Source: Schmidtea polychroa (taxonomy: Eukaryota). From it: DNA of 64,000 nucleotides. Where the stretch lies: positions 8,308,001 through 8,372,000 of the forward strand of contig CM097887.1 in assembly GCA_044892525.1 (NCBI GenBank), written 5' to 3'. The position numbers and the translations under genes are program-made. Under the pieces are notes generated by a model, which was given only the letters and a program-made list of their open reading frames with translations, had not been told where the DNA came from and did no database searches. Each line of letters starts with the position of its first letter. Position 1 is the stretch's first letter. Positions 1 to 31,786 of the stretch are shown in pieces.

Positions 1-49
1 AGCAATAGCGAAAGCGGATAACGGAGATAACAACAATCAAGAACCGAAA

Positions 50-10162: not shown

Positions 10163-10214
10163 AATACCTGGATGGGCAAAAGATCGATTAGATTTCGAAA
10201 TATTAGGAGGATTA

Positions 10215-13200
10215 TTGACGATGATCGAGAACTATGCAAATAGAGAAAGGACACACCCATTATTGCGAGTAGTCAAAAGCCAATGGCCAATATTATTTAC
10301 AATAACAGATCAATACGGAGACACACCATTACACAAACTCATGAAAGTAGGTAACAACGAGCAAATACTAGAAACAATAGAAGCATTTCACGACTGCAAG
10401 CGATCAACAGAACAAACAAACAACCAAGGTTACACACCATTAATGATAGCCGCAAACAGAGGCAAAACCAAAGACATTATAACCGCATTACTCGATACCG
10501 GATCGAAAATAACTACACAAGACCACGAGCGGAAAAACGCTCTACATCATGCCATCGAAGGGAGAAGTACCGAGGCGTTCACGTCATTGATGGAACTACT
10601 ATCATATGAGGACAATCGGGAAGTCGGAAACATGTATGATGGATTGTTAACAGCGATCAAAGAAAAACTGACGACAATTACCGGAATATTAATTACATGG
10701 AGAAGTCCAATTCAAAACGATTATATGATCAACGTAAACGAAGCGTTCACGAGAGGAGAGAACACGCTGATGAGAGAAGCTATGAAAGGACATCATTTAT
10801 TCGAAATCCCGAATCAATTACTAGAACGAGGGATAAAATTCACAAATCACAAAGACGAACAGTTAACAAAAAAGCGAATCGACACATTCGAAAAATCACT
10901 ATTCCAATTTACTAACCAAGTACGAAATAAATATTGGGAAACGGTAAGTGTGTTATATATGATGGACACAATGAATAACATCCGCGAGAATTACCTGGAT
11001 ATTATCCAAATACTTACAGCAGAGGAACGAATCAATAATCCAAACGGAAAGAAAACGAAAATAAGGTATGAGAAATCCAGGGAATCAAAGTCAACAACGA
11101 ACCAAACGGTCATAAACAACGTCATCGAAACCAAATCAATGAGTATAGATCAGGAGGCAATAATACGCAAAGCGAAAGAGGTATTCTTTGAGGAAATGCT
11201 AGAGTTGTCAGACGAAATAATATTGTCAAAAATAATAAAAGCTGTACATACATACGCAAGAGATCAAACCACGGGTTTAGATATCGGGAAAATCAAAACC
11301 TTCTTGCCTCGAGCATTTACGATGGTAACGAAGGATTCCAGAACACCCCTACAACAAGCAATACTAGCAGCGAAAGAAAATAGAGCAATAACGATCGTGA
11401 GAATCCTTGGAGATATGGGCGAGGAAACCAACACGAAAAATGAACAAGGCGAAACCGCCATGATGTATGCAGCTATAACAAAAATACACCCAAAAACACT
11501 CCACATCCTACATCAATCAGGATCGAAACTAGACGAAAGGTCCAATGAAGGAAATTCCACCTTGGACTGGGCAACCATACAGCCAAACCTAGAAATGATC
11601 AGATTTATTTGCAAAAATGCGACAAAAGAAGAAGTTGAAAATATGTGCAAAAACACATCTCAGTTTCAATGGAATACGGTACGGAAAAATCTAGAAGCAA
11701 TGAAATTATTATTAACCTGGAGAGTACCACAAAATAATAAATATGCGATAAATGTAAACGAATTCTACGAAAACGGAGAAAATGCGATGGTAAAGAATAC
11801 CCTAACGAAGGGGGGGACGCCTAAAATCATTTTAGTAGTATTAAATAGAGAAGACCTAAAATTCACGCAAAATCAGAACGAGCAACAACGAATTGGGAAA
11901 CATCGTCGTATGCAATTGAGAGAGTTAGTCAAAGAATGGAATAGAAAGAGGCATGCTGCAACGGGCAGGAAGGAGTTTGAATTCGAAGCAAAATTAGCAA
12001 GAAACAGAGTGCTAACAGCATATCGCAGATTATTGAACGATATAAATGTCGAGGACGACATTTTAAACGACAGCGGGGGAGATAAACACGATGACAATAA
12101 CGGAAAAGGCCGAAAGGAGGATAAAGAGAAAAGAGAACCGGAGGAGGGTAAACCGGAAAACAAGGATTCGGATACGAAAAGAGAGGGAAACAGCCCGGGA
12201 ACTAAGACCAAAGAGGAGGAAAAATCGAATAATGGAAAACAGAGGGTATGCCTACCTTTCACTAACAAAGAAATAGAGACAAATATGATATTAATGATAA
12301 TTATGCTTACCATGATAGAGTTAGTAACAGCTCATGGAGGGACGAGGACGATAAAAGAAACCAAAGAAGCGGAGAATCAAGATAGCAAAGAGGACGAACT
12401 AAAACAAGAAAAGAAAAAGCAAGCACAAGAGCAGCAGTGGGATTTAAAGGAAGAATGGGACTTAAAGGAAAGGTGCATACTAGGAAGATGCATGTCTAGA
12501 GCGTATCAGAAACTAGTACTGATAAATGAGGACACAGAACCAATAACAGAAGTAAGAATACAAGAAGCATACCGAAACCGAGACGGGAAAAGAATAACGA
12601 ACGTTAAAGGAAAAGAGGTACACCTAGGAAAAGGTGGCGAAGTAGTAATAACGCAGCTCCAACCAAGAAAAGAGCACAAAGTCTGTATTTCAAGATTAGG
12701 ACCGGGTGAGAGATGCCATCAATATGTGACGCAGCAGCAGCCTCCGAAGGAATATACGGTTTGTATCTGGAGAAACGAATCAAAAAGAGAATGCCGACGA
12801 TACCCGGGGAAAAGAGGAAAGAAAAGGAAAAACCACGACGAAAAGGACGAAGGAGGAAAGCACAAGAAAACTGGTGAGGAAGCTCAGGACAACTATGTTT
12901 CGGAGGAAGAGATGGAAAAAATACAAAAGATGGCAAAGGAGGGTATGAACGAGGAAATAGCAAGAATACGGGAAATGATGAAAGGAAATGGCAAAAGAGG
13001 AAACGAGAAAAGTACAGAAGCGATATCAACATTAACAAACAAGGAAAAACCAGAGAGTATAAGCGTGAAGCAGATGATGTGGATCAGTGGGATAATAATA
13101 ACAGGGGCATTCCTAATCATAACGGGGGGAACAATAAAAATAATTAAGGATAAACGACATCGCGGAGAACTAGAGATGACTCGAATCAGAAATTTCCAAC

Positions 13201-13286
13201 ATCGAGTGAAACGACCAAGTGATATCAAACAAGAACAGTGGGTGGAGGCCTGGAACGCTCAGCGCCCTCCAAACTCACGTATATAG
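10215..13286 (+). CDS. Ankyrin-repeat protein (two ~340-aa-spaced ANK modules) fused to an internal signal peptide, FN3-like ectodomain and TM; first ATG 10221, frame open from 10149
   Basis: ANK motifs GDTPLH, GYTPLMIAA, KNALHHAI, RTPLQQAI, GETAMMYAA, GNSTLDWA; duplicated TWRxP..Y.INVNE motif (10695, 11715); hydrophobic segments 12285-12332 and ~13074-13145. Confidence 0.85.
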   Translation: MTMIENYANRERTHPLLRVVKSQWPILFTITDQYGDTPLHKLMKVGNNEQILETIEAFHDCKRSTEQTNNQGYTPLMIAANRGKTKDIITALLDTGSKITTQDHERKNALHHAIEGRSTEAFTSLMELLSYEDNREVGNMYDGLLTAIKEKLTTITGILITWRSPIQNDYMINVNEAFTRGENTLMREAMKGHHLFEIPNQLLERGIKFTNHKDEQLTKKRIDTFEKSLFQFTNQVRNKYWETVSVLYMMDTMNNIRENYLDIIQILTAEERINNPNGKKTKIRYEKSRESKSTTNQTVINNVIETKSMSIDQEAIIRKAKEVFFEEMLELSDEIILSKIIKAVHTYARDQTTGLDIGKIKTFLPRAFTMVTKDSRTPLQQAILAAKENRAITIVRILGDMGEETNTKNEQGETAMMYAAITKIHPKTLHILHQSGSKLDERSNEGNSTLDWATIQPNLEMIRFICKNATKEEVENMCKNTSQFQWNTVRKNLEAMKLLLTWRVPQNNKYAINVNEFYENGENAMVKNTLTKGGTPKIILVVLNREDLKFTQNQNEQQRIGKHRRMQLRELVKEWNRKRHAATGRKEFEFEAKLARNRVLTAYRRLLNDINVEDDILNDSGGDKHDDNNGKGRKEDKEKREPEEGKPENKDSDTKREGNSPGTKTKEEEKSNNGKQRVCLPFTNKEIETNMILMIIMLTMIELVTAHGGTRTIKETKEAENQDSKEDELKQEKKKQAQEQQWDLKEEWDLKERCILGRCMSRAYQKLVLINEDTEPITEVRIQEAYRNRDGKRITNVKGKEVHLGKGGEVVITQLQPRKEHKVCISRLGPGERCHQYVTQQQPPKEYTVCIWRNESKRECRRYPGKRGKKRKNHDEKDEGGKHKKTGEEAQDNYVSEEEMEKIQKMAKEGMNEEIARIREMMKGNGKRGNEKSTEAISTLTNKEKPESISVKQMMWISGIIITGAFLIITGGTIKIIKDKRHRGELEMTRIRNFQHRVKRPSDIKQEQWVEAWNAQRPPNSRI

Positions 13287-13446
13287 AAAGGAATATGACT
13301 GTATATAATTGTAAAAAGTAAGTATATCTTATGTATATAACAGTACTATATCTTTATATAAGCGCGGTATCAATATTATACGATAACGGGAATCATAAAA
13401 TAAAATTAAATTTACATAAGAGTTGAAAAGTGTATATAAATTAGGA

Positions 13447-13806
13447 ATGGATCAAGGAAATAACGAAATGAACCACAATACAGTAACTGAAGAATTATGG
13501 AAGCAACAATGTGCCGTATTAGCACAATTAGTGTCCAATTTGCAAGAACAAGGACTGACGATGCACAGAAACCTGATCGAGAGTATGAACAGAGGATTTA
13601 GTTATTTGAAGATAATTGAAGACCAGAGGTTAAAAATCGAACAAATGCAAAGAGAGATAGAGAGGATAACCCAATATAGCCGTCGACAGGAAATTGAAAT
13701 AGACCGAATGAGGGAGGAAGCAGAACAGATAGAAATAGAAGACTGGTCGGAATGGCTAATGAATAGAGAGGAGAGCGGACACGAAGCCGACTCTTCCGAA
13801 CCCTAA
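13447..13806 (+). CDS. Small coiled-coil protein of unknown function (accessory ORF)
   Basis: Intact ORF with heptad-like segments; ATG at 13447 preceded by TTAG|GA; same composition as the element. Confidence 0.6.
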   Translation: MDQGNNEMNHNTVTEELWKQQCAVLAQLVSNLQEQGLTMHRNLIESMNRGFSYLKIIEDQRLKIEQMQREIERITQYSRRQEIEIDRMREEAEQIEIEDWSEWLMNREESGHEADSSEP

Positions 13807-13891
13807 ACCAAACCTAGCTTAAAATGTAAATAAGTGTAAATAAAATATCGAACCTGTATCGATAAGAACTACTTGTACATATAATTATAGA

Positions 13892-15280
13892 ATGGATAAA
13901 CGACAAAGAGAAGAGTTCAGAGAGATTGTCGAGCAAGTCCGAAAATCTACAACGATCAGAATACACAAACATGTTATGTGCGGAATATGTGAAAAGTTGT
14001 TAAAGGAACCTCACCAAACGCAATGTGGATGCCGAGCATGTAAAGAATGTATCAGTGAAGCAATAAAGAATAGACCACAGAGGTGCCCGGTGTGCAAAGA
14101 GACACTAATATCGAGTTTAGAAGACACTAACGAGGATAAAGCCGCAGTGAAAGACATGTTAAACACCAACCTGGGATGCAAAAATGCCCCATGCGAATGG
14201 AAAGGAGTAATATGGAAGGTAGTACAACATATGGGAGAATGTATGTACAGAATTGGCCAGTGTGAAAGGTGCCATAAAACCATTCGAGCAAGCGAAGGAA
14301 AAGAGCATCAAAGGCAGTGTGAAGAGAGATTAGAAAGATGTGAACACTGTGGAGAAATAGATACGTGGATAAATCTCACCCTCAAACATCACAATGTCCC
14401 AGAGGAGAGAGTATGTGCAGAGTTCAGTGGGGAATGCCCAAACGGATGTAACCAAGGGGAAATAATGAAGGTGGCACAGCATCTAAGAGAATGCGAAAAG
14501 AAAAGAATGACATGCGTACTAGGTAGATGGGGTTGTCAGAAATTACTACACCGAGGTGAGTTACCACATCATTTAGTAGAAAATGCTTCAACTCACGCAG
14601 AAATGTGGTCGACTGCGTTACGAGAAAGCGAAGAGAAAGTAAAACAAATGGAGATAGAGATAACATCGTTGAAAGTGTTAGTCAAAGAACTACTAGAAGA
14701 AAGGGAAGCGTTCGAAGAAGCCCGAGCAAACATAAAGATGCAAATAAACCGAATAGAAATCAGTAATAATCAGGCCAAGGAGCTACATCAGAAAATACGG
14801 GAAATAAATCTAAATGAGATAACCCCAACAGCACCCTACATATGGAAAATAACGGGAGTAAAAGAAAGAATACGAAAAGCAAAAACCGGAGAAGAGACAA
14901 GAATAACAAGTCCTGCATTCCATTCTTGGAAAAATGGGTACAAAATGAAAATGAAGATATATCCCAACGGGGACGGAACCGGATTAGATACGCACTTTTC
15001 GATTTTCTTTCTGTTATGTAAAGGAGAATACGACGAAATATTAGAATGGCCGTTCCAGGCAAAAATCGATATTACTCTGATGAACAACCAAAGTATACAT
15101 GAGCAAAGCTTCAAAACAACGGGGAATCAAATAGCTTACCAGAGGCCCCTCAACGAAGAAGGATCAGCAACAGGAGCACCTACGTTCATCTCACAACAAA
15201 GAGTAGAAGATATGGCGAGAAATGATACCATATATATCAAGATGACCGTGAGGAAAGAGGAGAAGGGTAGAACGGAGTAA
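13892..15280 (+). CDS. Intronless TRAF-like protein (RING, TRAF zinc fingers, coiled coil, MATH)
   Basis: RING CGICEKLLKEP.QT.CGCRAC..C...CPVC; zinc fingers C.N..C.WKG....VQH..EC; MATH YIWKI...SPAF..W.NGYKM.MKIYPNGDG.GL.THFS.FF.L.KGEYD.IL.WPF. Confidence 0.95.
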   Translation: MDKRQREEFREIVEQVRKSTTIRIHKHVMCGICEKLLKEPHQTQCGCRACKECISEAIKNRPQRCPVCKETLISSLEDTNEDKAAVKDMLNTNLGCKNAPCEWKGVIWKVVQHMGECMYRIGQCERCHKTIRASEGKEHQRQCEERLERCEHCGEIDTWINLTLKHHNVPEERVCAEFSGECPNGCNQGEIMKVAQHLRECEKKRMTCVLGRWGCQKLLHRGELPHHLVENASTHAEMWSTALRESEEKVKQMEIEITSLKVLVKELLEEREAFEEARANIKMQINRIEISNNQAKELHQKIREINLNEITPTAPYIWKITGVKERIRKAKTGEETRITSPAFHSWKNGYKMKMKIYPNGDGTGLDTHFSIFFLLCKGEYDEILEWPFQAKIDITLMNNQSIHEQSFKTTGNQIAYQRPLNEEGSATGAPTFISQQRVEDMARNDTIYIKMTVRKEEKGRTE

Positions 15281-15473
15281 CCAATCGAATAATGTTGTAT
15301 ATAATAATCTGTATATATCGGTGTATATAACCAATAAAATATTATATAATAATAGTATGAAAACCCTAAATACGAAAACCCAAAAATGATGCGAAAATTC
15401 CCCAAGAAACAGTAAATAATGAATAAATTCCTTTTTCATAATAAAAAGATTAATCGATGTCTATGATTTAGAG

Positions 15474-16529
15474 ATGACACAAGAGAAAATAACCGAAACT
15501 GCGATAGCCCCAACCAATGTCAACAAGACACAAATTCCCCGAGAACATAACAAAAAATGGAACAAAGTAATGTTCCAACTAACTAATCTCACCCGAAACC
15601 ACATCGAAGAAACTAGAGAAGATGAGAATAGTCAATACCAATGGTTAATACACAACTTAAGAGCGGAAGCAGAAGCATGCAAAAGAGCATCAAAATGGGC
15701 GTCACTAGAAAATACCCGCCAAGAAGCACACAGCCACTACTTAAAGCAGCTAGTGCAGGAAGCGAGAAAGAGACTTACCGATGAGAACACCAAGCGCGAA
15801 GCGGAAAAACAAATAGAAGACAGGAAAATGATGCACTTAGTGGCAGAAGCGAGAAAATGGAAAAGACAAAACAGAGAAATGAAAAAAGAGATGAAAGAAT
15901 TGCCCATGAGACTCGGATATGAGAGCGAACAGGGCAAATGGGAGGAGAATTTAATAATAAAGGAAGAATTGAAAAGGTTGAGAAAGGTCGCCGCCCGAAG
16001 CCAAACCTGGCAAACAAAGGCTATGGAGTTTGAGCGACATTTGGCAATGAAGTGCGACATAAGAGAGCACGAGAATGCCGCAATGGAAGAGATGATAACC
16101 CAACAAGCGGGACGGGTTGTGGAATTAGTAAATCAGGTAGAAGAGATGAAAAGAGACCTTAATGGATTACAAGGATCGCTGGAACAAAGAAACATGGTCC
16201 TAGCGGGAAAAAACAAAAAATTAGAAAACGAAAGGAAAATGTACACCGAAAATATTAAAAACTTAGAAATAGAAATTGAAAAATGGAAGGGCGACGAGAA
16301 AGTCAAGGCCCTAGACAAACAGATAGAGGCGAAAGATGAAGAGACAAGGTATCTCACCTATCTGCTCGACGAGGAATTGAATATCACTCGAGCTCTAAGA
16401 GACGAAATTAATGAATTGAGAGCTCAAATCCCCCAATATTACCTACCATACGACCCTATTGCGATACAGTTACATTCCGCGGTCGATAGTGATGAAGGTT
16501 ATGTAGGCCAGGAGGAAACCTTCGTATGA
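15474..16529 (+). CDS. Long coiled-coil protein of unknown function (accessory ORF)
   Basis: 351-aa intact ORF, E/K/R-rich heptads. Confidence 0.7.
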   Translation: MTQEKITETAIAPTNVNKTQIPREHNKKWNKVMFQLTNLTRNHIEETREDENSQYQWLIHNLRAEAEACKRASKWASLENTRQEAHSHYLKQLVQEARKRLTDENTKREAEKQIEDRKMMHLVAEARKWKRQNREMKKEMKELPMRLGYESEQGKWEENLIIKEELKRLRKVAARSQTWQTKAMEFERHLAMKCDIREHENAAMEEMITQQAGRVVELVNQVEEMKRDLNGLQGSLEQRNMVLAGKNKKLENERKMYTENIKNLEIEIEKWKGDEKVKALDKQIEAKDEETRYLTYLLDEELNITRALRDEINELRAQIPQYYLPYDPIAIQLHSAVDSDEGYVGQEETFV

Positions 16530-16699
16530 GGGTGGATGAAAAGATGAAAAACTAAAAACCGGGACGTATATCCCAAACAAAAAAAATTAAAGTACAGTAA
16601 AAGTATTTGAGGGACTGTAACCCTGTGTAAATAAAAACGATATAAATGTATAAGTATAAGTCGCACTGTAGCGCATGATTAATTGTAAATATTATAGAT

Positions 16700-17398
16700 A
16701 TGAAAATCGAGGAAATGATAGAAATTATGAGCGACGTAGAAGAGGGAGAGATTGAGGCAGAAACAACAGAAACACAAACGCTAAAGGCCGAGTTACGGGA
16801 AGAGAAATACGAAAACGGGAGATTAATAAACAAATACCTGGAGGACCGGAAAATGATAAAGGTGTTAAAGAAAGAGTGCGAAGCGTTGGGGGAAATAAAA
16901 AGAGAAACGGAAGAGGAAAATGAATGGCTACACGAACAAAGGAAGCGAGGGAAAAACTGGGAAAAGATAGCGGGAGAACTATGGAAAGAGAGGGCAAGCT
17001 TCAAAGCAAAGGAGGTAATCCAAGACTACTGGAAAACTGAGGCGAAGGAGCGCCAAACAGCTATAAATAAATTAAAACGACAACTAGAAGAAAACCAACG
17101 GGAAAGTAAAGAAATGAGGAAGTGGGTCCGCAAATATAGAGAAATAGAAAGAAAACATCAACAACAAAATTACCTGCAAGAAAACGAACAAGATCTCCTA
17201 CAAATCGAGCTAAAAAGAAACCTTGAAAAGAAAAGGGAAGAAATTAGACGCTTGGAAAAAGAAATTAGACATCTAAAGAGAGAAGCCCGTGAAAAAGACC
17301 GACAATTGGAAATGCTGCCCGAGTTAAGACACAGGGTAATTAAAGCAGAGTCCACCTTGATGAGAATCGGCGAAAATAATCCAAATCAGAACCATTAA
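16700..17398 (+). CDS. Coiled-coil protein of unknown function (accessory ORF)
   Basis: 232-aa intact ORF, E/K/R-rich heptads. Confidence 0.7.
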   Translation: MKIEEMIEIMSDVEEGEIEAETTETQTLKAELREEKYENGRLINKYLEDRKMIKVLKKECEALGEIKRETEEENEWLHEQRKRGKNWEKIAGELWKERASFKAKEVIQDYWKTEAKERQTAINKLKRQLEENQRESKEMRKWVRKYREIERKHQQQNYLQENEQDLLQIELKRNLEKKREEIRRLEKEIRHLKREAREKDRQLEMLPELRHRVIKAESTLMRIGENNPNQNH

Positions 17399-17438
17399 AT
17401 TAAGGGTCATTAAAACCAATTGTAAATAAACATAATGA

Positions 17439-18107
17439 ATGTATAATAGTATCATGCGAGGCGAGATGATGATAACAATGATGGTATTGATGATTCTGAT
17501 GGAAAGCAAACAAATAGACGCCCAACCGAAAATCGTACGAGATTACCGAAATCAAAATCAAGAACCTAAACAAGAATCCAGTCAATGCACATACCCGATG
17601 ACCGTAAAAACCCATATCATCCAAACCATTCAATCAACCCGATCACACATCAACAACATCCAAACAATGTGTAAAAAGAATCCCATTTGTAAAATGATAA
17701 ACAAACAAATCCTCGAACAAATCCAACAATTCGACCAGTTGGAACAACAAATGCAACAAGAGAATTTTGGAAATCTGGTAGAAAAGCCAAAAATACCTCC
17801 CGAAATCAATGACACCCATTATCTCATATATGTGGTGATCGCAGAAACCCTCCTCCTATGTCTACCAATATTCATGAAAATTTACGAAGTTCGAAATAGA
17901 TGTAGAGTCTCGACATCAATAAGAGTAACCTCGAACCAAAATCCTCAAGAAGTGCCCCTGACAAATCTTAACCCATCCCCATTCCGACCTCGAACCCCGA
18001 GTAATCAACCAATCCAGCCGAAATCTAATAGTCAGACCTATCTCAACATCAATACCCAAACCAACCAACAGCCGCCAGCAGAAGCATCAATGGTTAACAG
18101 TTCATAA
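17439..18107 (+). CDS. Putative small type I membrane protein (accessory ORF)
   Basis: Signal-like MMITMMVLMILMES..IDA, Gln-rich ectodomain with 3 Cys, TM YLIYVVIAETLLLCLPIFM, Pro/Asn-rich tail; AATAAA follows at ~18214. Confidence 0.65.
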   Translation: MYNSIMRGEMMITMMVLMILMESKQIDAQPKIVRDYRNQNQEPKQESSQCTYPMTVKTHIIQTIQSTRSHINNIQTMCKKNPICKMINKQILEQIQQFDQLEQQMQQENFGNLVEKPKIPPEINDTHYLIYVVIAETLLLCLPIFMKIYEVRNRCRVSTSIRVTSNQNPQEVPLTNLNPSPFRPRTPSNQPIQPKSNSQTYLNINTQTNQQPPAEASMVNSS

Positions 18108-18669
18108 ACTCTAACTCAAACATTTGTGTTATTATATGTGGAAACTTTTATTGTATGTACAAACTATCACCTTAAGTGATACTTGCTTGATCTTGCTTTG
18201 ACCTTGATCTTACAATAAAAATTTTATCATTGTTGTATAATTTTCGTGTTCGTGTTATATTTTTTTTTGAATGAATGAATTAAGTTAATTATGCAATTGC
18301 GGGACGCAATTTTGATGGGTCCCCGAGTGATTTGTTGGGCTGAGTCGAAAATTTAATCGTTGAAAAATAAGAAAGTAGGGAAGTAGAACATTAAGAAAAA
18401 TAAAAATAAAATAAATAAAATCAGAAATAAAATAGAATAAGGTATAAGGAAAATAATAATTAAGACATAAGAATTAAAACAAAAAATAAAATTAAGAAAA
18501 GATTAAAATAGAACAAGTTGACAAATAAATAAAGAGGAATTCAAGAAATAATAAGGAAATTAAGGAAATAAATAGAAAAACATATTAAAAATAAAGAAAA
18601 TAAGGAGAAAACAACCTAAAAACAAGAAAATTATATTAAATTAATAGAAATAAGCGGTACTCAACTCTG

Positions 18670-18703
18670 ATTGGTCCGCACAAATAAGAATTTGATATAT
18701 ATA
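18670..18703 (+). promoter_or_regulatory. LTR core promoter: inverted CCAAT box (ATTGG 18670) and TATA (TATATATA 18696-18703)
   Basis: Both motifs are conserved in the solo LTR (25166, 25192); a conserved AG|GTAAGA donor lies ~50 nt after the TATA. Confidence 0.55.
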
Positions 18704-19220
18704 CAACTACCAAAAACATTAAATTTACTGTTAACCCCGAGCATTTCATAGGTAAGAAAAAATGTTTACTGTTTCTACTGTTAACCCCGAGCATTTCATA
18801 GACATCTACAACTCACGGAGACTTATTTCAAGGATCAGCAATACAAGTAGAGCAACAGTTAATTCGAAAAACTTCACAGCAATTCGAACTCAGTCACAGC
18901 AATCGACATTCGACGAATTATCATCAGACTAATTTGGAACGACTAACGTTAATTTTCCGATTCAGCCTAATTCCATAGTAAGGGATTTTTATTTATGATA
19001 TTGTTTTTCGAAGTTAATAGTAAATATGTATATTTAATGAGTAATTAAACTTTTAAATTTAACCAGACTCTCTTTTCATTTGATCCTGAATAACGATTTT
19101 GATAAAGTAAATAATTTAAATGTTTAAAAGTATTTATTGGTAACAGGTGAACTCTTACATAATTTTTATGGATATTTATTTTGAAGTGATAGTTTTATGA
19201 TTTCTAATATTAACGAGAAA

Positions 19221-19350
19221 CGTGGCGTTGAGATACTCCATGTCATGGTGTGAGGTGCCTTCGGGAGCTCAGCCGGTGGACATGGAGTATTTCAATCACG
19301 CAGCTAGATTGGGCCGAAATGTGAAGGCTTCTTCACGGGTCCAATTGCTG
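19221..19350 (+). ncRNA. Conserved structured RNA element (two adjacent hairpins) in the LTR
   Basis: 17-bp stem 19228-19244/19279-19295 with 5 compensatory pair changes versus the copy at 25740-25807; cUUCGg apical loop; second hairpin 19301-19350. The strand is assumed from LTR orientation and G-U pairs. Confidence 0.75.
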
Positions 19351-21209
19351 AAGGACTTAAAATCTGTCAGAGTACCGAAATATAGACCGAAAGGAAACCT
19401 TATGAAATTTTCGAAAATAGGATATGTGCTTCACAGCGACTGAGGGAGTTCTCCTATTAACTCTGTATTGTCCAGAGTCGTCTTATAAGACATTCATGCC
19501 ACTTCTGTCTATAAATCCGAACTTACCATGTGGGGGAAGATACCATTAAACATCCATCGCTGGTTTTTCTAACATATCGAGAAGTTGAAATTGCATTCGG
19601 TAGATTTTTGAAAAAGTAAATCTAATTTAGGTCATCTCTTTCAGATGCGACATCCAAATCTTAGCATATGATGAGGAATTTACAATAAAGGAAAAGTAAA
19701 ACATAAAACCACAATAATACTGTATTCAATCACATATATTAACAAAATCTGGTAATACCCATTGAATAATTTTCATGCTGTCGCGTCGAAATATCCACTA
19801 CTGAAATATGCTTCATAGAGTCTAGTTGGCTGGTTCGTAGAGATCTTCCATCGTTCAAAAGCATCCAATATTGAGGAAATTACGAGTCGTAGTAAATAAA
19901 TCCAACATCATAAGCTCAGATGGGAATCGACACGCGATGTAACATTTGCAGTTCGCTCAGTACGGTTGATAGTTACAGATAAAATTTCCATCGAATAGGC
20001 ACCCATACATACAGACATACTGCTAACATAACTATGAGTAGCGTCATCCGGTCAGAAATATGCATGAGAAACAGCAGAATCATTCCGAATGCCTCTCACC
20101 GCAGGGAATGCCGCCATGTGTCACCCTCTCTAAGATTCTTAGTGTGTGAGTAGTAATCAGTGGTCCTATTAGATAATGCTGACATGAGATGTGACTTCCA
20201 GATGACTGACTCTTAAATTTCACTACTGATAAAGGTCATTCGTACCACTAAAAAGATAAGCCAAAATAACCAGTAACCGACTACTAAGATAAGAGACTCT
20301 CTAAAGTGCACTCATTAAAGATAATTTTGCTTAAATTAAATATTCTAAATAAAAATCGAAATTGTTGAAGGGGTATTTTAATTAATAACCGAAAATTCAA
20401 ACCAAACTTTATAACTAAACCATAGGAAGTTTCACCTAAGTGTTGTAGAGGTTTATCGTAATTCTGATTAGATGTTACAAATAATAGTAGTAGCCTTTGA
20501 GCCAAATTTAAATTAACTAAAGCATCCACAGGAATTTTTGGGTTATAAAATAGCTAGTAATATTGTACTTAAATTTCTCATATTCCATGTAAACTACGTA
20601 TCGCAATAGAAAACTAAATCCGATAACAAATTATTATGTAATTACAATGTTTTTTTACGATGCCATATTTCTACGACGATATCACCGTATGGTATGGATA
20701 AGGGGTGATCATAAAATAGTGACGTATAGTTTATACGAAATTACGAGTTGTTACTTATTCCGCTACTCGAGGTAAGGGTGCAAGTTTTTACTAGTCGCAT
20801 TTGGTCCAAAAACCTTATTTTGCATTAGAATAACAACAAATAATCAGCGAAATTTAAACGAAGTGTAGTATAGTGTATTTGTAATGAAATAGGTTTATTC
20901 ACTCCGGCATGAACAAATCCGTAAATTGCCTTTATGTGCGATAGATAGAAATCCAACTCGAACGCGATAGACGAAAATTAAAATTTTTACAAATAATTTG
21001 CATTCGTCAGGGAAGCAATCAGGGCGTTGAGGAATAATTTTTGTAAAGGATACGTAAAATATTAGTAATCAAGGGTGAAGGGAAGGATCCTGTTTCATCG
21101 ACTCGTCTTGTTTTCTTCCAGCACTAAGTATCCAATAGCGAATAAACCGTATATCTGATCCGAAATTTTTAGATATAGTCACCATAGTTTTCTTCTTTAG
21201 CCATCCATT

Positions 21210-21962
21210 ATGTTATCAAACAACAAATCAGCTTTACGTCCCTGCTTCTCCTGCTCAGATAAAAATGCAGTGATTAAAGATCTTCAAGCCCAGATCGGTC
21301 GATATAAACGAAAAATCGACGAGCTGGAAGGGACATGGTTTAGTCCCGCTCGGATGAAGGAGATCCAAAAGAAGCTCGATCGTAGCGAGCATTGCCGGGA
21401 CGCGCTAATATCTGAGAGCCGTGCCCAAAGAAGTCTAATCAGAGAACAATCCGAGGCACTGCATAAGGTTTACGTGCAGGCGGCTACAACCCGAAAGATC
21501 GTGCAGATTCCCATCCGAGAGGCCGATGACATCTTTCCGCCTCATCACAACCTTTCCTCGAATCCATCTCCACCGTTCAAGAGACCGTGCCGAGACTGCG
21601 TCGAAACCGAATGGTCCCCCAAGCGTCCAGATGTTGTCATCACGGGTACCAGTAAGCCCCCCACTGCTAGTCCATCTGTATCAGTCACCCTTCTACAAGT
21701 GGCATCTTCAAACAAACCCAAGCGCAAACAACTCTCTCGAGCAGAGCGCAAGAAGAGACAGCGCGAGCGCGCCACTGCAAAGCCAAACATCCCATCAACA
21801 GAGGACTCAACCAACGGTGGTAACTCTCACGTGTCCATCGACCTAACAACGGGACCCTCAGCGCGAATCATATCAGCCGCTGGCGTAAGGTGGGAAGAGA
21901 ACGCTTCCGAGTTTTTCAACCTCGACGAATTATTCGCCGACACTGAATGGGAGAAACAATAA
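21210..21962 (+). CDS. LTR-encoded 250-aa protein (CxxC, coiled coil, Arg/Lys-rich motif, acidic C-terminus)
   Basis: Intact in both LTR copies, ~84% aa identity by manual count with many synonymous changes; polypyrimidine splice acceptor TTTTCTTCTTTAG just upstream; AATAAA at 22086. Confidence 0.85.
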   Translation: MLSNNKSALRPCFSCSDKNAVIKDLQAQIGRYKRKIDELEGTWFSPARMKEIQKKLDRSEHCRDALISESRAQRSLIREQSEALHKVYVQAATTRKIVQIPIREADDIFPPHHNLSSNPSPPFKRPCRDCVETEWSPKRPDVVITGTSKPPTASPSVSVTLLQVASSNKPKRKQLSRAERKKRQRERATAKPNIPSTEDSTNGGNSHVSIDLTTGPSARIISAAGVRWEENASEFFNLDELFADTEWEKQ

Positions 21963-22085
21963 AACCCCAGTGGCGGTCAGGATGAGGAACAAGGATCCGA
22001 TCTATGTTGATTATGATGTTTTCTCTTCTTTCGACAAACATTAGTAAAGTGTACAGCTGAATCCTGGTGTCATAACGTTGAAATT

Positions 22086-22091
22086 AATAAA
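22086..22091 (+). terminator. Polyadenylation signal of the LTR transcription unit
   Basis: AATAAA followed by a TTGTTGTCTT GU-rich element, conserved in the solo LTR (~28351). Confidence 0.6.
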
Positions 22092-22226
22092 TCTTGTTGT
22101 CTTACACGTTTTCGTTCATGAATAATTAGACTTTAATTAAGTGGGTTGAGTAGAGAACCCGCAAGATCTAGTGAGAATTTCCCAATTTGCATTCAGCGAA
22201 TTCCTGATAGGTGGTTGTGTAAGGAA

Positions 22227-22410
22227 ATGGACGTAAGCCCTTCTATCGGCAGTCGTGAATGGGAAGTCGAGGCCTCAGCAAGGAGTAGTTTTAAGGCAGA
22301 AGCTCACCTGCTTGCTGGCGTCTCGCCTGCATAGTGCAGTACCAACGTGAAGTGATTCACGGGCACTATGTTGGAAGAAAGTTATGTGGGGTTTCACTCC
22401 AGGTTGACAA
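22227..22410 (+). ncRNA. Near-invariant structured block near the LTR 3' end (U5-like region)
   Basis: 184 nt with 2 differences versus 28491-28674; helices CATAGTGC/GCACTATG, CGTGAA/TTCACG capped by GNRA (GTGA vs GTAA), CAGCAAG/CTTGCTG. Confidence 0.5.
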
Positions 22411-22812
22411 ATCGGTGGCACCTTTTATTCGAGATGGACAATCAACCCTTAGACCCGCCAACATGGTAGAATGGTCAGCCGAGGTGTGACCCCAACATCA
22501 ACAACAATAACGAATTCCAAACAATATAACTTTATTGAATAACGATTGTAATGACACAAATTACTCAATGCAACTCAAACGTATTCGGGTGCTTATTAAA
22601 ACCCTTTGGAAGGAACTTTGGGAACACTTTAATTATACGACCACTCAAGATGACATTGAAAAATTACAAACAAACGAGAGTTTACATTACGTAACTAAAT
22701 GTAAAACGATTGTAGAAACTATTGTAAATAAATTCGGTCAAAATACACATGTCAATTTTAAGAATGATTTTAAAATACCATTTTTTAATGTTATGGATTA
22801 GATGTTTTTATT

Positions 22813-23140
22813 TGAGAATCTAGTATTGGCATAAAAAAACTTCGCATTAGCTCATTTCAAAGGCACCTGTAAATATAAAGCATTTGCAGATGCTTAATCG
22901 GAAAACATTTGATATCGAAAAATGTGACGACATTGTGATTGATGACTTATATTTTAATAAGTAACGCATTGAAGAATTTTTATCTCTTATCGATTGTGGC
23001 TTTGAAAATGCCATAAACATTAAGTATAGTGTTGCTATCATTCCAAAGGGATTGCCAAGGTTATTTTGCATCAATGAAATTGATTTATTTTTGCCAGAGA
23101 ACGCATCTCAGAGTATTATGGATGCTTACAGAAGGAGAAG
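22813..23140 (+). pseudogene. Degenerate SF3 helicase resembling the C-terminal half of a CRESS-DNA virus Rep
   Basis: With frameshifts: (G>stop)ESSIG(K) Walker A 22813-22840, IVIDD Walker B 22932-22946, KY...IPKGLPRLFCIN motif C ~23061-23075, DAYRRR Arg finger 23121-23138; in-frame TAA at 22962. Confidence 0.65.
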
Positions 23141-24824: not shown

Positions 24825-25732
24825 TGTTGGGCTGAGTCGAAAATTTAATCGTTGTAAAAATAAGAAAGTAGGAAAGTAGAACATTAAGGAAAATAAAAAT
24901 AAAATAAAGGAAATCAGAGATAAAATAGAATAAGATATAAGGAAAATAATAATTAAGACATAAGAATTAAAACAAAAAATAAAATTAAGAAAAGATTAAA
25001 ATAGAACAACAAGTTGACAAATAAATAAGGAGGAATTCAAGAAATAATAAGGAAATTAAGGAAATAAATAGAAAAACATATTAAAAATAAAGAAAATAAG
25101 GAGAAAACAACCTAAAAACAAGAAAATTATATTAAATTAATAGAAATAAGCGGTACTCAACTCTGATTGGTCCGCACAAATAAGAATTTGCTATATATAC
25201 AACCACCAAAATCATTAAATTTACTGTTAACCCCGAGCATTTTATAGGTAAGAGAGAATGTTTAAAGTTAACTGTTAACCCCGAGCATTTTATAGTAAAG
25301 ACATCCACAACTTACGGAGACACATTCAAGAATCAGAGACACTAACCGAGCAACAGTTCATTCAGAGAATTCCTAGCTACTTACAATCAATTCGAAGCTA
25401 AGAGATTTGTCACAGCAATCGATATTCCATCAACAAACTCAGTCAGAGCGACTAACATTAATTTTTCGATCCAGCCTAATTCGACAGTAAGGGATTTTAT
25501 TTCATTTATTTATTTAATTTCGAAGTTAACCGTACTATGTATCTTTAATGAATAATTAAAAATTTTTGAAAAATAACATTGACTCTCTTTTCATTTGATC
25601 CCAATAAATGATTTCGATAAAGTAAATAATTTAAAAGTCTAAAAGTAGTTATTAGTAATAAATGAGCGATTGCACAATCTTTATGATTACTGTTATGAAA
25701 TACCTTTTTATGATTTTTAAAGTAACGAGTAA

Positions 25733-25862
25733 CGTGGAGTTGAGGAACCGCAGATCATGGTGTGAGGTGCCTTCGGGAGCTCAGTCGGTGGATCTGAGGT
25801 TCTTCAATCACGCAGCTAGATTGGGCCGAAATGTGAAGGCTTCTTCACGGGTCCAATCGCTG
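25733..25862 (+). ncRNA. Second copy of the covarying double-hairpin RNA element
   Basis: Stem TTGAGGAACCGCAGATC/GATCTGAGGTTCTTCAA; apical part and second hairpin nearly identical to 19221-19350. Confidence 0.75.
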
Positions 25863-27473
25863 AAGGATTGACGCAAAATTAGACAAAATGAGAAAAACGA
25901 TTTAGATTAGTGACATGAATTTAGAACGAATACCGAAATGTACAGTGATTGAGGTGGACGTTACATCTGCAGTGAGTTTATTTCCATCCTGAGGAACCAT
26001 GCGATCCTGAGACTAACTCTTCGCTAGCATCGTCGTAATCAGTCCAATTTGACTCTAACATCGTACTAAATTCCACACTTATGTTCGGTTAATTAAAAAT
26101 TAGGACGAATTCTATATTTCTTCATTTTTCAGTTAAAAATAAATAAAGCTCTAATGTATAAATAACATTTATTAAAATTAAAGTAAAAACATAACTCCTG
26201 GTAATCATTTTATTTAACTTATACTTACTAGTAAACTAGAAATACCCGTTCAGCAGTTTCCACACCATCACATCAGGATGTCTATCATCGAAATAATATC
26301 CACCTAGAGTAGGGAGTTGAATTGTAGAACTTTTTCATCAAGTAATATCTAGAATTGAGGAAAATCTCCAAACATAGTAAATAATTCCAAAAAATCCAAG
26401 CGAGAGAATTGTCATGAAAATTGAACGGTTGAGAATTTGTCCATATGATGTGCGAGTGCAGATAAATTTTCCATTGAGTAGGCACACTAGCATGACTATG
26501 GGTAGCAACACCAGCGTTAGAATTACCTGAGAAATACACACGAGGATAGATGATAATCACGCAGCGAGTGCATGGCTAATCATAGTAATCCGTGTTCCAT
26601 ATGTCGTATCTAGCATAGATTCTAGCATTACGACTGATAACGGCGGGATATTGATTAACCGTCATAGTAGCTCCATGAATAGCAGATGATGGCTCTCATA
26701 GATTTTGTGTTGAAATGCGATTAACGAAAGATAACTACGTGCAGTAACATTTCACAAACCACTCATCTGGAAAATTTTCGAATGAATTAAATTTAACTGA
26801 TAATAGAATGACTAAATGGATAATTATAGACAATTATAATTTGAATTAAATAATTTAAAGGATAACCGAATGACCAAGTGCGTAATGGTAGACCAGTATG
26901 AGTTAAACTAAATAATTTAAACGGTAACGGGCATTGTTAAATTAAGTGGGGATAATTGGGACCTGCTAACTAATGATGGAAAACTAAAGCCAAGCATTAA
27001 TGATAGAGTCGGAAATTGTCAATTCGAGTGTTACGAGTGATCTAACGAACAACTAATAGTAATTTTGAATAATAGGTAAATTAATTCGAGTTCGTGAATA
27101 ATAACATTTTGAATAACCATGGTAAATATTTTAAATGATAATTAAGAGTGTTTTAAAAGCTACTCAAATGTACCATTTAACAATCAGATATGTTTATAGA
27201 CCAACAATCATAGGGCAATTTAGTAATTAATAAACCTTCTCAATTTCTAAGTTAAAGATCTATTTGCATTCGTCAATGCTATCCCTTTAATGAACTCTTC
27301 GTTAAATAAAAGCGATGTTACAAAATCGTCTAGAAGGGAAATACATTCCCCTACTTGTTCCGAATACCCGCTAACTGCTGACAGTGACTAACCAACCTCA
27401 TTCGACCTGCGATCTTATTCATATAAAAGATTTACTAAGTCGTTATAGTTCCTTATTTTACAGTTGATCAATT

Positions 27474-28223
27474 ATGCTGCCAACTACGAAATCCACCTTA
27501 CGTCCTTGCTTCTCTTGCGCGGACAAAAACGCGATTATAAAGGATCTTCAGGCCCAGATCGGGCGCTACAAAAAGAAGATAGATGAGCTGGAGGGCACTT
27601 GGTTTACCCCCGCTCAGATGAAGGAGACTCAAAAGAAGCTCCATCGTAGTGAGCATTGTCGGGACGCGCTCATCTCTGAAAGCCGTGCCCAGAGAAGCCT
27701 TATTAAAGAACAGTCAGAAGCGCTGCACAAAGTCTACGTGCAGGCAGCTACCACACAAAAAATCGTACAGATTCCCATCAAAGAGGCCGATAACATCTTC
27801 CCGCCTCATCATAACCCCTCATCAAATCCATCTCCACCGTTCAAGAGACCATGTCGAGACTGCGTGGAAACCGAACTGTCACCTATGCGACCGGACGTTG
27901 TCATCACAGGTACTAGTAAGACCTCAACTACTAGTACCTCTGTATCCGCTGCGCTTCAGCAAGTCGCATCTACGAGCAAACCCAAGCGCAAACAATTATC
28001 TCGTGCGGAACGTAAGAAGAGACAGCGTGAGCGCGCATCCACAAAGCCAAACATCCCATCGATAGAAAACTCAACCAGTGGTAGTAGTTCGCGCGTGTCC
28101 ATCGACTTGACAGTAGGACCCCCAGCGCGCATCATCTCAGCAGCTGGCGTGACATGGGAGGAGAACGCCTCCGAATTCTTTAATCTGGATGAGTTACTCG
28201 CCGACACCGAATGGGGAAAGTAA
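27474..28223 (+). CDS. LTR-encoded 249-aa protein, second copy
   Basis: Colinear with 21210-21962 without internal indels; acceptor TTATTTTACAG ends at 27463. Confidence 0.85.
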   Translation: MLPTTKSTLRPCFSCADKNAIIKDLQAQIGRYKKKIDELEGTWFTPAQMKETQKKLHRSEHCRDALISESRAQRSLIKEQSEALHKVYVQAATTQKIVQIPIKEADNIFPPHHNPSSNPSPPFKRPCRDCVETELSPMRPDVVITGTSKTSTTSTSVSAALQQVASTSKPKRKQLSRAERKKRQRERASTKPNIPSIENSTSGSSSRVSIDLTVGPPARIISAAGVTWEENASEFFNLDELLADTEWGK

Positions 28224-28490
28224 GAGAACCACAACGGCATTCCCGAAGCCTGTTGCGAAGTCGAACTACATTTGTTGGGGAGTTTTTCTTTTCCTTCGAC
28301 AAACGTTCGTGATGTGTACAGTTGAATCCTTGTGTCTAAATGTTGAAATTAATAAATTTTGTTGTCTTATATATTTTCGTTTATGAATAGCCAGACTTTG
28401 ATTAAATAGGTTAAATAAAGCGTCTTCGAGACCTAAGGAATAATCCCCGATTTGCTTTCGCGAAATTCTGACTAACGGTGGTGTAATGAG

Positions 28491-28674
28491 ATGGACGTAA
28501 GCCCTTCTATCGGCAGTCGTGAATGGGAAGTCGAGGCCTCAGCAAGGAGTAGTTTTAAGGCAGAAGCTCACCTGCTTGCTGGCGTCTCGCCTGCATAGTG
28601 CAGTACCAACGTGAAGTAATTCACGGGCACTATGTTGGAGGAAAGTTATGTGGGGTTTCACTCCAGGTTGACAA
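28491..28674 (+). ncRNA. Second copy of the near-invariant U5-like structured block
   Basis: 182/184 identical to 22227-22410. Confidence 0.5.
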
Positions 28675-29934
28675 GGCGGTAGCACATTTTATTCGAGATG
28701 GACAATCAACCCTTAGACCAGCCAATATTGTAGAGTAGTCAGCCGAGGTGTAACCCCAACACCAAAATCACGATCTTAGAACATGCACAGAAACTCATCA
28801 AAATTGTTACAGAGATCCACACGGATGCAAGAGTCAGGTGAATACCAATCTATACGGAGATCCAGCTATTTCTGGCAATTGCATCGATAATATCAAAAAT
28901 TCTAGGTATTGGCTCAAATAACAAAAAGCCTTGCAAACCAAGGTCAGGAAATTTTAGCGAAAGAGATTTCAAGAATTGAATATGAGTCGGAGATCTCAGT
29001 AGAAAAAATGAGAAATCTTTTTTTTCAATGTGCTTTATTTTATTGATTGCATTCATTTGTAAAGTGGCTATTTAATATTATCCTTATTGTTTGACTTTAG
29101 TTTTTCGAAAATTTATTTCAGTTGCATTCAAGTTAATAGTAAATAAATGTAAAATCAAACAAAATGTCAAATCAGTTTTTCATAATATTGGAACCATTTT
29201 AAACCTAAAAGAACATGAGTTGATTATAAATTATTAGCGACTCTATAAAATTTATATCTGTGTAATATAAATGACTCTGACATAATATATTAGTGTAATC
29301 GCGAGTGATTCGAATGAAAGCATTTATCATAAAATCTCGTATTTCTAGAAATCTATAAAACTTGTATTTCGTGAAAGTTTTTAATATAGAAGTCCCAGGT
29401 AGATAGCACCAATTAAGTGATAAAGTAAAATAAATCGCAGAACCAAAGACGCTTGCGACGGGCGTTTAATGACTGATTATGATTATTATGTGTGGTTGCT
29501 ATTCGAACGTGAAATTAATGAAAGTGTTGATCAGATAAGCAATTAGAAGTGAAAGATTCTCCACACATGTAACCACCACATGTAACCTTTTCTTACTTCC
29601 TGTCTTAATTACTTTGATTCAATTGATGTATTATCGTGAATTTGATTTGGCCCATTTACACAATGTTAAAATCCCCTGTGTTTCAACATAACATTATACT
29701 AAATTATTTTTAGTTTTCTAATTGTACAAATCTATTCAATTTCATAAATCGTGATCTTAAGTATTTTTTAACTTATATTTAAAAAAATAAAATCTCTAAA
29801 AAATTAACTTATTTCTATTATTTCACTATTTTTAAAAAAAAAATTTAAAATTCAATTTGTTTTAAGAATAATTAAGAATTTGTTTTAATAATAATTTTAA
29901 TAATTTCTTTAGATTTAAATTTTTACAAAGAGTT

Positions 29935-31786
29935 ATGTCTAAAAAATCTATTGAAACAAAATATGCTAAGCGGAAACTGCTTAAAAAATATTTAGAAGTG
30001 GATGAAAAGGTTTTTAATATATGTTTAAATTAACATTTAATTATGTATTTAGATAAATATATTATTTGCGATTGGTACTAGTTCCATCGAACAAAGAATT
30101 TCTTATATGATAGCCAATTATAAAAAACAGGAATTTAATCTACAAGATTGTAATGACGATCTTAGTCAGCATAAAGTGTGATAGTAGCGATAACTTTTAA
30201 TAGTTTCATTTAATTGTAATTAGGAGCTTTTGAAATGGATAATTAGTCAACAATCACAAAATCAAATGGAGAAAGATGAAATTTTGCGAAAAGTGTTGCA
30301 GGTATTTGCAGTTTATCATTGATGATCGAAATTAAAATTGTTAATCAAGGAACCATTTTCCAAAGAAACGAGTCGAGTTGAGCGACTACAAGAAGAGCTT
30401 AATTCCTATCAAAACGAGCAATTGAAAACTCCTATCAAAGTCCAACAGAAATTATCTGCATTCTCGCCCTCCGTGACTCCAATGAAGAATTCAATGATGG
30501 AGAAGATCATGAGCCAATCATTGAATGAATCCTTATGCACCAGCATGGATTCCAGCATGGATTGCCCCACCTCATTAACAATACCATCGATCAAGTTCCG
30601 TCTGTCCGAGCAGCACCAATGGGAGGATAAAAGCGCCTCAAATGAGATCTGTAATGATTGCATGCAGAAAGTGTCCCCATTGGAACTCAACGACAAGAAA
30701 CTGCACCATTGCTCGCGCTGTGGGTTCCACATGCACTCGTCATGCATTAGATTGTCCGCAAGGCGCAAGCTGTGCATCCCGGTGCACAAGGCGGTGGTGG
30801 CAGCCAATGCTGGGGCGCCCGTGAGGGTGACTGGGGAGCGCACGGTTGACATAAGGGACCTGTTGCGGTATGGTGACAAGCGGGATGCTGCTGCTTGCTA
30901 CTGGAGTGCTAGTGAGTGCTCCATGCAGCCTGCGGTGCCCTCGGTGCTGCTGTTGCTTATGCACCACGTGCACACATTCGGGTACGGCCATACCAATCTG
31001 TACCGCAACAGCGCTATCGGCAACCCCGGCGGCACGCACGGGTTCAGCAAGGCTGTCAAGGAATTGGCTGAGAAATTGATGAAGGGCAAGGCCAAGGCCA
31101 TCGGCAGGTTTGATATCGTCACCGTGTGTGACTGCATGAAGCTGTTGCTAGGCAGCCTCAAGGATCCCCTGCTCTCTGATGCTAATATCAATCAGTTCAT
31201 GGCGGCCACCGCCACCGCTGGCACCGCCTATCCAGGTAGCACTAGCAACGGCACTAGCAACGGCACCAGCAGCACTAGCAACGGCACCAATTTCACTGAC
31301 CTCCTCAGGAACATCCTAAACACCAGTCACAGGAACAAAGCCACCATCGCATATTTACTTGTCCATTTAAAGGTAACCATGGCGCCCATTATCTTATTAT
31401 TTTTATTGGTTAATGATTATTTGTCTTCATTGTTGATTTTTTATATTATCGATTTATCCCATTGATTATCCCCACTGATCAGATATTGATTGATTATAAC
31501 ATTTAGGTTGTTGCTGGTTACAGGCGGGGAATGCGTCGGCATGATGTGAATGAGTTAGCAAAAGTTTTTGCTCCTATCCTAATCAGTGAGGAGGCAAGAG
31601 GTAAATATTTGCCAGCGGCTATTGAAGTAATTCTATTGGTTGAATTATGTTGTCATTTGATTGGTGTAATTTATTCAGCTTCTAGAAGGCCTCATCAAAG
31701 TTGAATATGAAATATTCATCGATTATATCACAGATATTATGCTGTTCCAACACGTGACTCAGTTGATGAGGGATCCTTCTGAATGA
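29935..31786 (+). CDS. RACGAP1: Host RacGAP1/MgcRacGAP/CYK-4-like protein (coiled coil, C1, RhoGAP); predicted exons 29935-30009, 30053-30175, 30224-30301, 30350-31372, 31507-31626, 31679-31786 (~508 aa)
   Basis: All five GT-AG introns (43, 48, 48, 134, 52 bp) keep one frame; C1 H..C..C..C..C..H..C..C; GAP NLYRNS (Arg finger), VKELAEKL, LKDPLL, NKATIAYLLVHL, ELAKVFAPIL. Orthology is inferred from architecture and motifs. Confidence 0.8.

Follow-up and report, generated by a model that had tools for sequence, protein, structure and literature searches.

A putative self-contained early gene in the long terminal repeat of a Burro-type Gypsy element from Schmidtea polychroa

The long terminal repeat (LTR) carried by a giant Gypsy-type element of the Burro type was analysed in a stretch of 64,000 nucleotides (nt) of Schmidtea polychroa DNA (the window; assembly GCA_044892525.1, contig CM097887.1, forward-strand positions 8,308,001 to 8,372,000). 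The best explanation of the findings as a whole, to which we give a probability of about 0.55, is that this LTR is a self-contained early gene of the element, with a layout resembling that of the regulatory unit in complex retroviruses. As judged from the sequence, the gene cassette inside the LTR is very probably real: its open reading frame (ORF) is under purifying selection, its signals are kept across saturated synonymous divergence, and gene models of related proteins join just before the initiator Met. On these grounds the claim of an earlier sequence-only reading, that the LTR is a complete spliced gene cassette, is well supported, with splicing and start site as predictions from the DNA. 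Every motif listed in that reading was recovered in both LTRs of the window at the same coordinates. New in the present analysis are a structured RNA in intron 2, the family of the encoded protein, a likely reason for a 25-nt repeat near the start site, and a TAG in front of the accessory ATGs.

The predicted gene cassette

Two LTRs were found 2.3 kb apart on the plus strand. LTR1 (18333-22497; 4165 bp, TG...CA) is the 3′ LTR of the Burro-type element, and LTR2 (24825-28761; 3937 bp) is a solo LTR with a 4-bp target duplication, CCAA. No target duplication flanks LTR1, and no polypurine tract was found directly upstream of it (18303-18332; purines 7/15). LTR2 has the same layout as LTR1 (repeat at 25223/25271, donor at 25487, RNA element at 25734-25865, ORF at 27474-28223, AATAAA at 28351). 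Identity between the two was 97.5% in the predicted U3 (18333-18726; 394 bp, very A-rich), about 80% in the leader, about 60-84% in R, 84% for the ORF protein and 95% in distal U5 (22226-22497). They belong to different subfamilies. The motifs thus do occur in two LTR copies, as had been claimed, but the two do not form the pair of a single element: one is a 3′ LTR, the other an unrelated solo LTR from a diverged subfamily. This makes the signals common to both more informative.

The LTR1 ORF (21210-21962) encodes a protein of 250 amino acids (aa). The two LTR proteins share 209 of 249 residues with zero indels, and the ratio of non-synonymous to synonymous substitution (dN/dS) was 0.07 (bootstrap 0.04-0.11) at a dS of 1.18. 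The ORF is under purifying selection.

Upstream of it, the predicted promoter (18667-18703) consists of a reversed CCAAT box at -55 (ATTGG at 18670/25166 in LTR1/LTR2) and the TATA motif TATATATA at 18696/25192. The former is the sole such box common to both LTRs. The latter, one of three TATA matches in LTR1 and one of four in LTR2, is the only one at a homologous place. Downstream follows an exact 25-nt direct repeat (18727-18751 and 18777-18801 in LTR1; 25223-25247 and 25271-25295 in LTR2). In both LTRs its left end lies 31 nt from the first T of the TATA motif, at a pyrimidine-purine (T/A) step, with one additional matching base in LTR1, and its right end coincides with a GT donor. Copy 1 is the predicted exon 1, which would place the start site at 18727. 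The predicted mini-intron (18752-18801) is 50 nt long, and its final 25 nt are repeat copy 2, which contains a branch-like TTAAC and the acceptor. The sequence-only reading had described this GT-AG interval framed by the repeat; it is indeed present in both LTRs, with 50 nt in LTR1 and 48 nt in LTR2, where a further AG at 25300 would make 53 nt. GTAAG follows copy 1 and not copy 2 in both LTRs. Exact repeats of at least 20 nt spaced by less than 100 nt occur at three places in the 64 kb, namely in both LTRs and at one unrelated site (63672-63751), an exact direct repeat with 50-nt spacing and without splice signals that served as a chance control.

The introns of the neighbouring host C1-RhoGAP gene (29935-31785; GC-rich large exon, strong match to the planarian Initiator at 29879) were used for comparison. 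Five introns, chosen by eye and with an uncertain boundary for the fifth, measure 43, 48, 48, 134 and 78 nt, and the frame stays open without the first four. With three of the five at 43-48 nt, the mini-intron is, as proposed earlier, of host-typical size. Its branch-like YTNAY lies 17 nt from the end, and three of the five host introns have such a motif at 17-19 nt.

The predicted non-coding exon 2 (18802-18977) ends at a conserved GTAAGG donor (18978/25487). On its exon side the donor at 18978 is weak, with 5/9 consensus matches; the five host donors range from 4 to 7. The predicted intron 2 (18978-21200; 2223 nt, and 1977 nt in LTR2) is conserved in its 5′ part and mostly unalignable in the middle. 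The AG of the ORF acceptor ends at 21200/27463, 9 and 10 nt ahead of the ATG (21210/27474). When the YAG sites of each intron were ranked by pyrimidine content, this acceptor came second of 67 in LTR1 and second of 59 in LTR2, despite the unalignable intron upstream; the one better-ranking YAG in each intron lies at a non-homologous place. The poly(A) region (22086-22125) comprises AATAAA (22086/28351), an upstream TGTA and a downstream GT/T-rich tract, and the cleavage site, i.e. the R/U5 border, is predicted near 22106. Donor, polypyrimidine acceptor and AATAAA were thus all located in both LTRs, in agreement with the earlier description. A conserved donor-like GTAAG (22233/28497), 147 nt past AATAAA, opens a U5 block that has one difference in 128 nt, after which 12 differences follow in 144 nt. 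Folding of distal U5 was weakly above that of shuffled sequences (z -1.3 and -2.0).

Very probably, then, the CCAAT/TATA promoter would start an RNA at 18727, two splicing events would place a non-coding leader of 201 nt in front of a terminal exon that encodes the 250-aa protein, and the transcript would end at the LTR poly(A) site, giving an mRNA of about 1.1 kb.

A structured RNA in intron 2 and an Arg-rich protein

Intron 2 contains a plus-strand RNA element of two hairpins (19222-19353 in LTR1, 25734-25865 in LTR2) with a nearly invariant apical part, a UUCG loop and a GAAA bulge. It is the top folding window in each LTR (1/63 and 1/59), with z scores against shuffles of -7.4 in LTR1 and -5.5 in LTR2, and the antisense strand folds more weakly. 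Between the LTRs, 44 of 51 base pairs are unchanged, five are compensatory, one has a one-sided change and one is broken. Accordingly, ten of the 15 differences form the five compensatory pairs, one is one-sided, two break the one pair and two are unpaired. The element starts at +496, after the second donor, so that only intron-retaining RNA would carry it. It is a candidate response, export or packaging signal, and a candidate element for protein binding and export of unspliced RNA in the manner of Rev/Rex. The nearly invariant apical part suits a protein-binding site and not a microRNA. A reading as microRNA precursor was rejected, as the stem varies with compensation while the apical part hardly varies, and the best microRNA match in Rfam had an E value of 3.7. 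Hammerhead and selenocysteine insertion sequence readings of the hairpins were likewise rejected, both being without an Rfam match and wrong in pattern by eye. An Rfam search with the element returned no family, and no pairing above 8 nt was found between the element, U5 and the leader.

Elsewhere in intron 2, block 19686-20082 matches 26173-26559 with 61% identity (score 74; shuffle maximum 35). On its minus strand a donor-like GT lies at a homologous place and is followed by an AG 39 and 48 nt later. Hydrophobic antisense frames occur in it, among them a 71-aa ORF (26338-26553) without a Pfam match. An antisense coding gene found no clear support: although the DNA homology is real, there is no common open frame and no clear codon periodicity. 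The block is possibly a decayed or non-coding antisense unit. A tandem repeat of about 60 nt (26783-26928) is present in intron 2 of LTR2 only.

The LTR protein is predicted to consist of a coiled coil (residues 15-98), a basic helix (169-189) and an acidic-aromatic tail. Fourteen homologs were retrieved, ten by a full-library search (E 3e-8 to 5e-4) and four that were new among the six matches of a profile search. They are about 30-45% identical to the LTR protein, and all are unnamed gene models. Unrelated host domains are fused to 12 of the 14, as would be expected if gene predictors come upon the acceptor and exon of many scattered LTR copies; three of the models join at one site, four codons ahead of the Met. 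The coiled-coil core of the family retains invariant residues. The Arg-rich motif is present in both window proteins and in nine of the 14 homologs; it is partial in one, and the other four sequences stop or are truncated at this point or ahead of it. Both window proteins and four of the homologs have the acidic-aromatic W..EF..EL tail.

A structure model showed two long helices, the basic helix and disorder, at low confidence (pLDDT 51 and 63). Fold searches gave no match at E 0.001 and only generic coiled coils (Z at most 6.3); Pfam matches were to coiled coils only, all below cut-off. No match was obtained among 403 candidates in a word-index search with the single ORF or by tblastn against phages. 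A PDB profile search returned actin noise from chimeric rows, and the best score of an Atlas query (0.84) was not informative. Zinc binding by two CxxC pairs was rejected, the pairs not being conserved in homologs. The segments PDVVIT and VSIDLT (21627-21647 and 21831-21848), with IxIDL-like motifs recurring in some homologs, resemble calcineurin-docking and SUMO-interacting motifs.

From these features the LTR protein looks like a nuclear RNA-binding regulator from outside the Rev family. We tentatively propose a Rev-like function: the protein may oligomerise by its coiled coil, bind the intron hairpins by its Arg-rich helix and promote intron-retaining RNA, either by export or by poly(A) read-through. 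Intact solo LTRs could provide it in trans where they are not silenced. The earlier statement that every solo LTR could express the protein goes too far: the one solo LTR examined is intact (1/1), and Burro elements are repressed by PIWI-interacting RNAs (PMC8532177, PMC10558129).

It is also conceivable, with less than even odds, that the gene structure is as described and the function another, the protein being a transcriptional activator of the Tas/Tax/Tat kind, in which the coiled coil would be joined by a basic localisation signal and an acidic activation tail. The hairpins, placed after the major donor, would then serve independently of it in packaging, dimerisation or constitutive export. 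The acidic-aromatic tail, which we liken to an activation domain, and the absence of a conserved export signal agree with such an activator. Against it speak the basic segment, which forms an Arg-rich helix of the kind typical of RNA binders, a weak match to REV, and the covarying RNA with its invariant loop within the same LTR unit. For the hairpins, a role as packaging signal would fit the location of such signals in retroviral 5′ leaders (PMC12789967).

The probable length of R and a possible inheritance of the mini-intron

A long R is probable. Genomic RNA would start at the same site as the mRNA, so that R would measure 3.1-3.4 kb. Transcripts that keep intron 2 would carry the hairpins and read through the 5′ poly(A) site, and those from which it is spliced would stop there. 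In human immunodeficiency virus (HIV) and foamy viruses, U1 binding at a donor allows the 5′ poly(A) site to be passed (PMC12789967); here, coupling of 3′-end formation to use of the acceptor at 21200 is a plausible switch. The division given by the sequence-only reading, with U3 of about 0.4 kb and R of about 3.4 kb, is favoured, if not proven, by the repeat ends at start site and donor, by a drop in identity and by the lone conserved promoter. Identity falls from 384/394 in U3 to 135/168 in exon 2 (p 5e-11), which is where intermolecular first strand transfer, a process known from retroviruses (PMC12789967), would place the breakpoint.

Once the mini-intron is removed, the 5′ end matches, base for base and in both LTRs, the genomic sequence that begins with copy 2. 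Reverse transcription could therefore restore the intron, which again favours an R of about 3.4 kb. The mechanism that we infer from this colinearity has about an even chance. The cap-proximal mini-intron would be spliced from the genomic 5′ end yet not lost: strong-stop DNA of the spliced end would anneal to copy 2 within the 3′ R, which is unspliced, and reverse transcriptase would then recopy the intron and copy 1, so that copy 1 would overwrite copy 2 in every cycle. The repeat copies are identical within each LTR, and the single variant site between the LTRs has changed in both copies together. Differences between LTR1 and LTR2 are concentrated in the 8 nt preceding copy 2, where three nucleotides are substituted and a gap of 2 nt occurs; the 10 nt preceding copy 1 are free of them. 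A 5-nt indel at the junction sits between two AGs and fits what use of a second acceptor would leave.

R could instead be short. The cassette would then be real and lie, with its own promoter, in a very long U3 as in the case of MMTV (mouse mammary tumour virus) sag, and genomic RNA would start at a TATA-less site just before the poly(A) signal. This would accord with the short R regions known (PMC12789967), would do without multi-kb strong-stop DNA and would avoid most of the 5′ poly(A) problem; moreover, identity reaches 79% in the 100 nt surrounding AATAAA and is lower in their flanks. However, no promoter motif is common to the LTRs there: the last 1.1 kb contain no TATA, CCAAT, TCT or GC box shared by both. 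The last codons show no extra constraint, third-codon-position identity being flat at 0.54-0.60. Nor does a short R offer a simple cause for a repeat that spans start site to donor or for its concerted change, for which one would have to invoke gene conversion or the occasional copying of an LTR mRNA packaged alongside. We consider a short R unlikely.

Still less probable is that the mini-intron is not spliced at all, the repeat being a duplicated factor site or a landing pad for strand transfer, and the ORF acceptor being served by spliced-leader trans-splicing or by donors of the element. Flatworms have trans-splicing and operons (PMC8629364), the internal spacers of the element (see below) are operon-like, and a first exon of 25 nt is very short. 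These points are countered by GTAAG after copy 1 only in both LTRs, by the conserved donor at 18978, and by an intron size and branch distance that agree with host introns. That chance motifs in AT-rich DNA surround a decayed captured ORF is highly improbable: the individual motifs are short and freedom from ATG is at chance level, but the reading is already contradicted by the dN/dS of 0.07, by residues invariant throughout the family and by base pairs with compensatory changes.

Several points weigh against the early-gene reading. The LTR comparison covers two copies, and the 5′ LTR and its flank lie outside the window. Retroviral R regions are only 15-250 nt long (PMC12789967), and a long R would require an extreme strong-stop product of 3.8 kb. 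No feature was seen by which the poly(A) sites at the 5′ and 3′ ends could be told apart, the conserved GTAAG being present in both LTRs. Gene conversion between neighbouring LTRs could also yield a near-identical U3. The planarian Initiator matrix (PMC10558129 Table S3) has no match at 18727; it supports neither candidate start site and scores 13.2 bits before the host gene, and the motif occurs in only 10-40% of planarian promoters (PMC10558129). The first 17 nt of the mini-intron contain two differing sites, slightly above expectation at the U3 rate (p 0.07), and the concerted change of the repeat copies concerns a single site. The second exon is ATG-free as the earlier reading had pointed out, at a probability of about 0.42 per copy, i.e. 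at chance level. The homologs are predicted gene models. Among Rev/Rex-type features, Rev homology and an export signal, unlike the Arg-rich motif, were not found: Pfam REV (PF00424) matched one of 15 family members, in the motif region only and below cut-off (E 0.0013; 19.1 bits, cut-off 22), and no conserved leucine-rich export signal is present, the class-1 pattern for nuclear export signals being absent from the LTR1 protein and matched once, at a non-conserved place, in that of LTR2.

If the early-gene reading is correct, the known length of R would be extended about tenfold, a concrete route would exist by which an LTR element can inherit a spliceosomal intron, and regulation in the style of complex retroviruses would have arisen in a Gypsy lineage with an unrelated protein family. 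Since Burro elements are numerous, solo LTRs that carry the gene could constitute an overlooked supply of a regulator in planarians; one Burro element is reported to support stem cells (PMC13465017).

The host element and known systems compared

The body of the element occupies 1-18332 of the window, on the plus strand. A total length above 30 kb and a BIR domain are marks of Burro elements; of the present one the window contains 18.3 kb of internal region, with the 5′ end outside, and a BIR domain is absent from that part. An open frame of 3386 aa encodes zinc knuckles, a Bcl-2-like region, a fusion glycoprotein, protease (PR), reverse transcriptase (RT), RNase H (RH) and integrase (IN), and is followed by an ankyrin ORF in a different frame (together 2-13286). 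The fusion glycoprotein is of mononegavirus type (PF24664, E 4e-67) and lies upstream of RVP, RVT_1, RNase H and rve in the same frame. The Bcl-2-like match is weak (E 0.025, below the Pfam cut-off). The last 14 nt of the polyprotein ORF (10149-10162) are also part of the ankyrin ORF; for Burro1, ankyrin repeats are listed among the motifs described for its large ORF. TRAF (MATH/TRAF) and more accessory ORFs are also found downstream of the polyprotein frame.

Five plus-strand spacers precede accessory ORFs between 13287 and 17453. In all five a TAG ends 1-4 nt ahead of the ATG, the background frequency being 3% for positions in the spacers and 10% for internal ATGs; for spacer 17399-17453 the second in-frame ATG of the ORF was chosen by us. 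TGTAHATA, which we take to be a Pumilio element, occurs 12 times (1-3 per spacer) against 0.57 in shuffles, none of 2000 of which reached 12. AATAAA lies 29-70 nt ahead of the ATG in all five, a weak enrichment that 87 of 1000 shuffles reached. The TAGs are candidate further acceptors for the LTR leader, and the spacers look like the layout of an operon or a late transcription unit. The accessory ORFs may be expressed either by splicing of the LTR leader to each acceptor or by operon-type trans-splicing; flatworms trans-splice and have operons (PMC8629364). In its widest form the model would make R a 3.4-kb doubly spliced regulatory gene in which duplicated exon 1 preserves the intron, the outcome, LTR-only mRNA or genomic RNA, is decided by the Arg-rich protein through an RNA switch in the intron, the leader is also spliced to the internal accessory acceptors as in the adenovirus late unit, and solo LTRs form a dispersed circuit that controls full-length elements in trans. 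This full combination is doubtful.

The element was inserted in a dispersed repeat, 22498-22652 having a second copy at 40260-40404 on the minus strand. Broken frames at 22700-23140 resemble, by eye, the Rep helicase of small DNA viruses and have no Pfam match. A hAT-type element (36283-38975) has a second copy that begins at the window end (63903-64000; 98 nt identical), and relics of DNA transposons lie at 48154-49783 (hAT), 50708-51982 (FLYWCH/MULE) and 56885-57112 (PF13843).

The element shares with the giant planarian Gypsy elements named Burro (PMC6431247) zinc knuckles, a Bcl-2-like region, PR-RT-RH-IN, multi-kb LTRs, an env-like fusion protein that follows gag and precedes pol in the same frame, and ankyrin, TRAF/MATH and accessory ORFs. 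Unlike in Burro as described there, TRAF here has an ORF to itself, downstream of pol. In the parts of PMC6431247 that deal with Burro, an LTR-encoded gene, LTR introns and the length of R are not described. Among the titles and openings of abstracts listed on Burro, on ORFs or introns in LTRs, on Rev-like Gypsy proteins, on the R region and on intron retention, none describes this anatomy; an LTR ORF or start site may already be recorded in Repbase or in the original Burro papers and their supplements.

With Rev, Rex, Rem and Rec the LTR protein has in common its small size, its origin from a predicted doubly spliced RNA, an Arg-rich motif and an oligomerisation helix, together with a structured RNA confined to intron-retaining transcripts. 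It differs from them in that homology is below cut-off, the leucine-rich export signal is absent, and the whole unit lies inside a Gypsy LTR and is therefore retained by solo LTRs. In contrast to Tat/TAR, the RNA element lies at +496 in intron 2 and not at the 5′ end of all transcripts, and the CxxC pairs are not kept in homologs. MMTV sag, which is located in U3, is likewise an ORF carried within an LTR; here, by contrast, a single LTR contains the promoter and leader exons as well as the ORF and poly(A) site, probably within R. Sag is membrane-bound and translated from an RNA that is spliced once (PMC12789967), and it is of type II, whereas the LTR protein has no hydrophobic segment, is predicted to be soluble and is modelled as coiled coil and disorder. 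Finally, Penelope-like elements also keep a small 5′ UTR (untranslated region) intron beside the start site in a terminal repeat, a retention whose significance the describing paper leaves unknown (bioRxiv 10.1101/2021.04.23.441226). They belong to another class, with an RT of their own type, GIY-YIG and no integrase, as opposed to the integrase and retroviral protease found here, and in the present element, unlike in theirs, the duplicated exon 1 suggests a mechanism by which the intron is retained.

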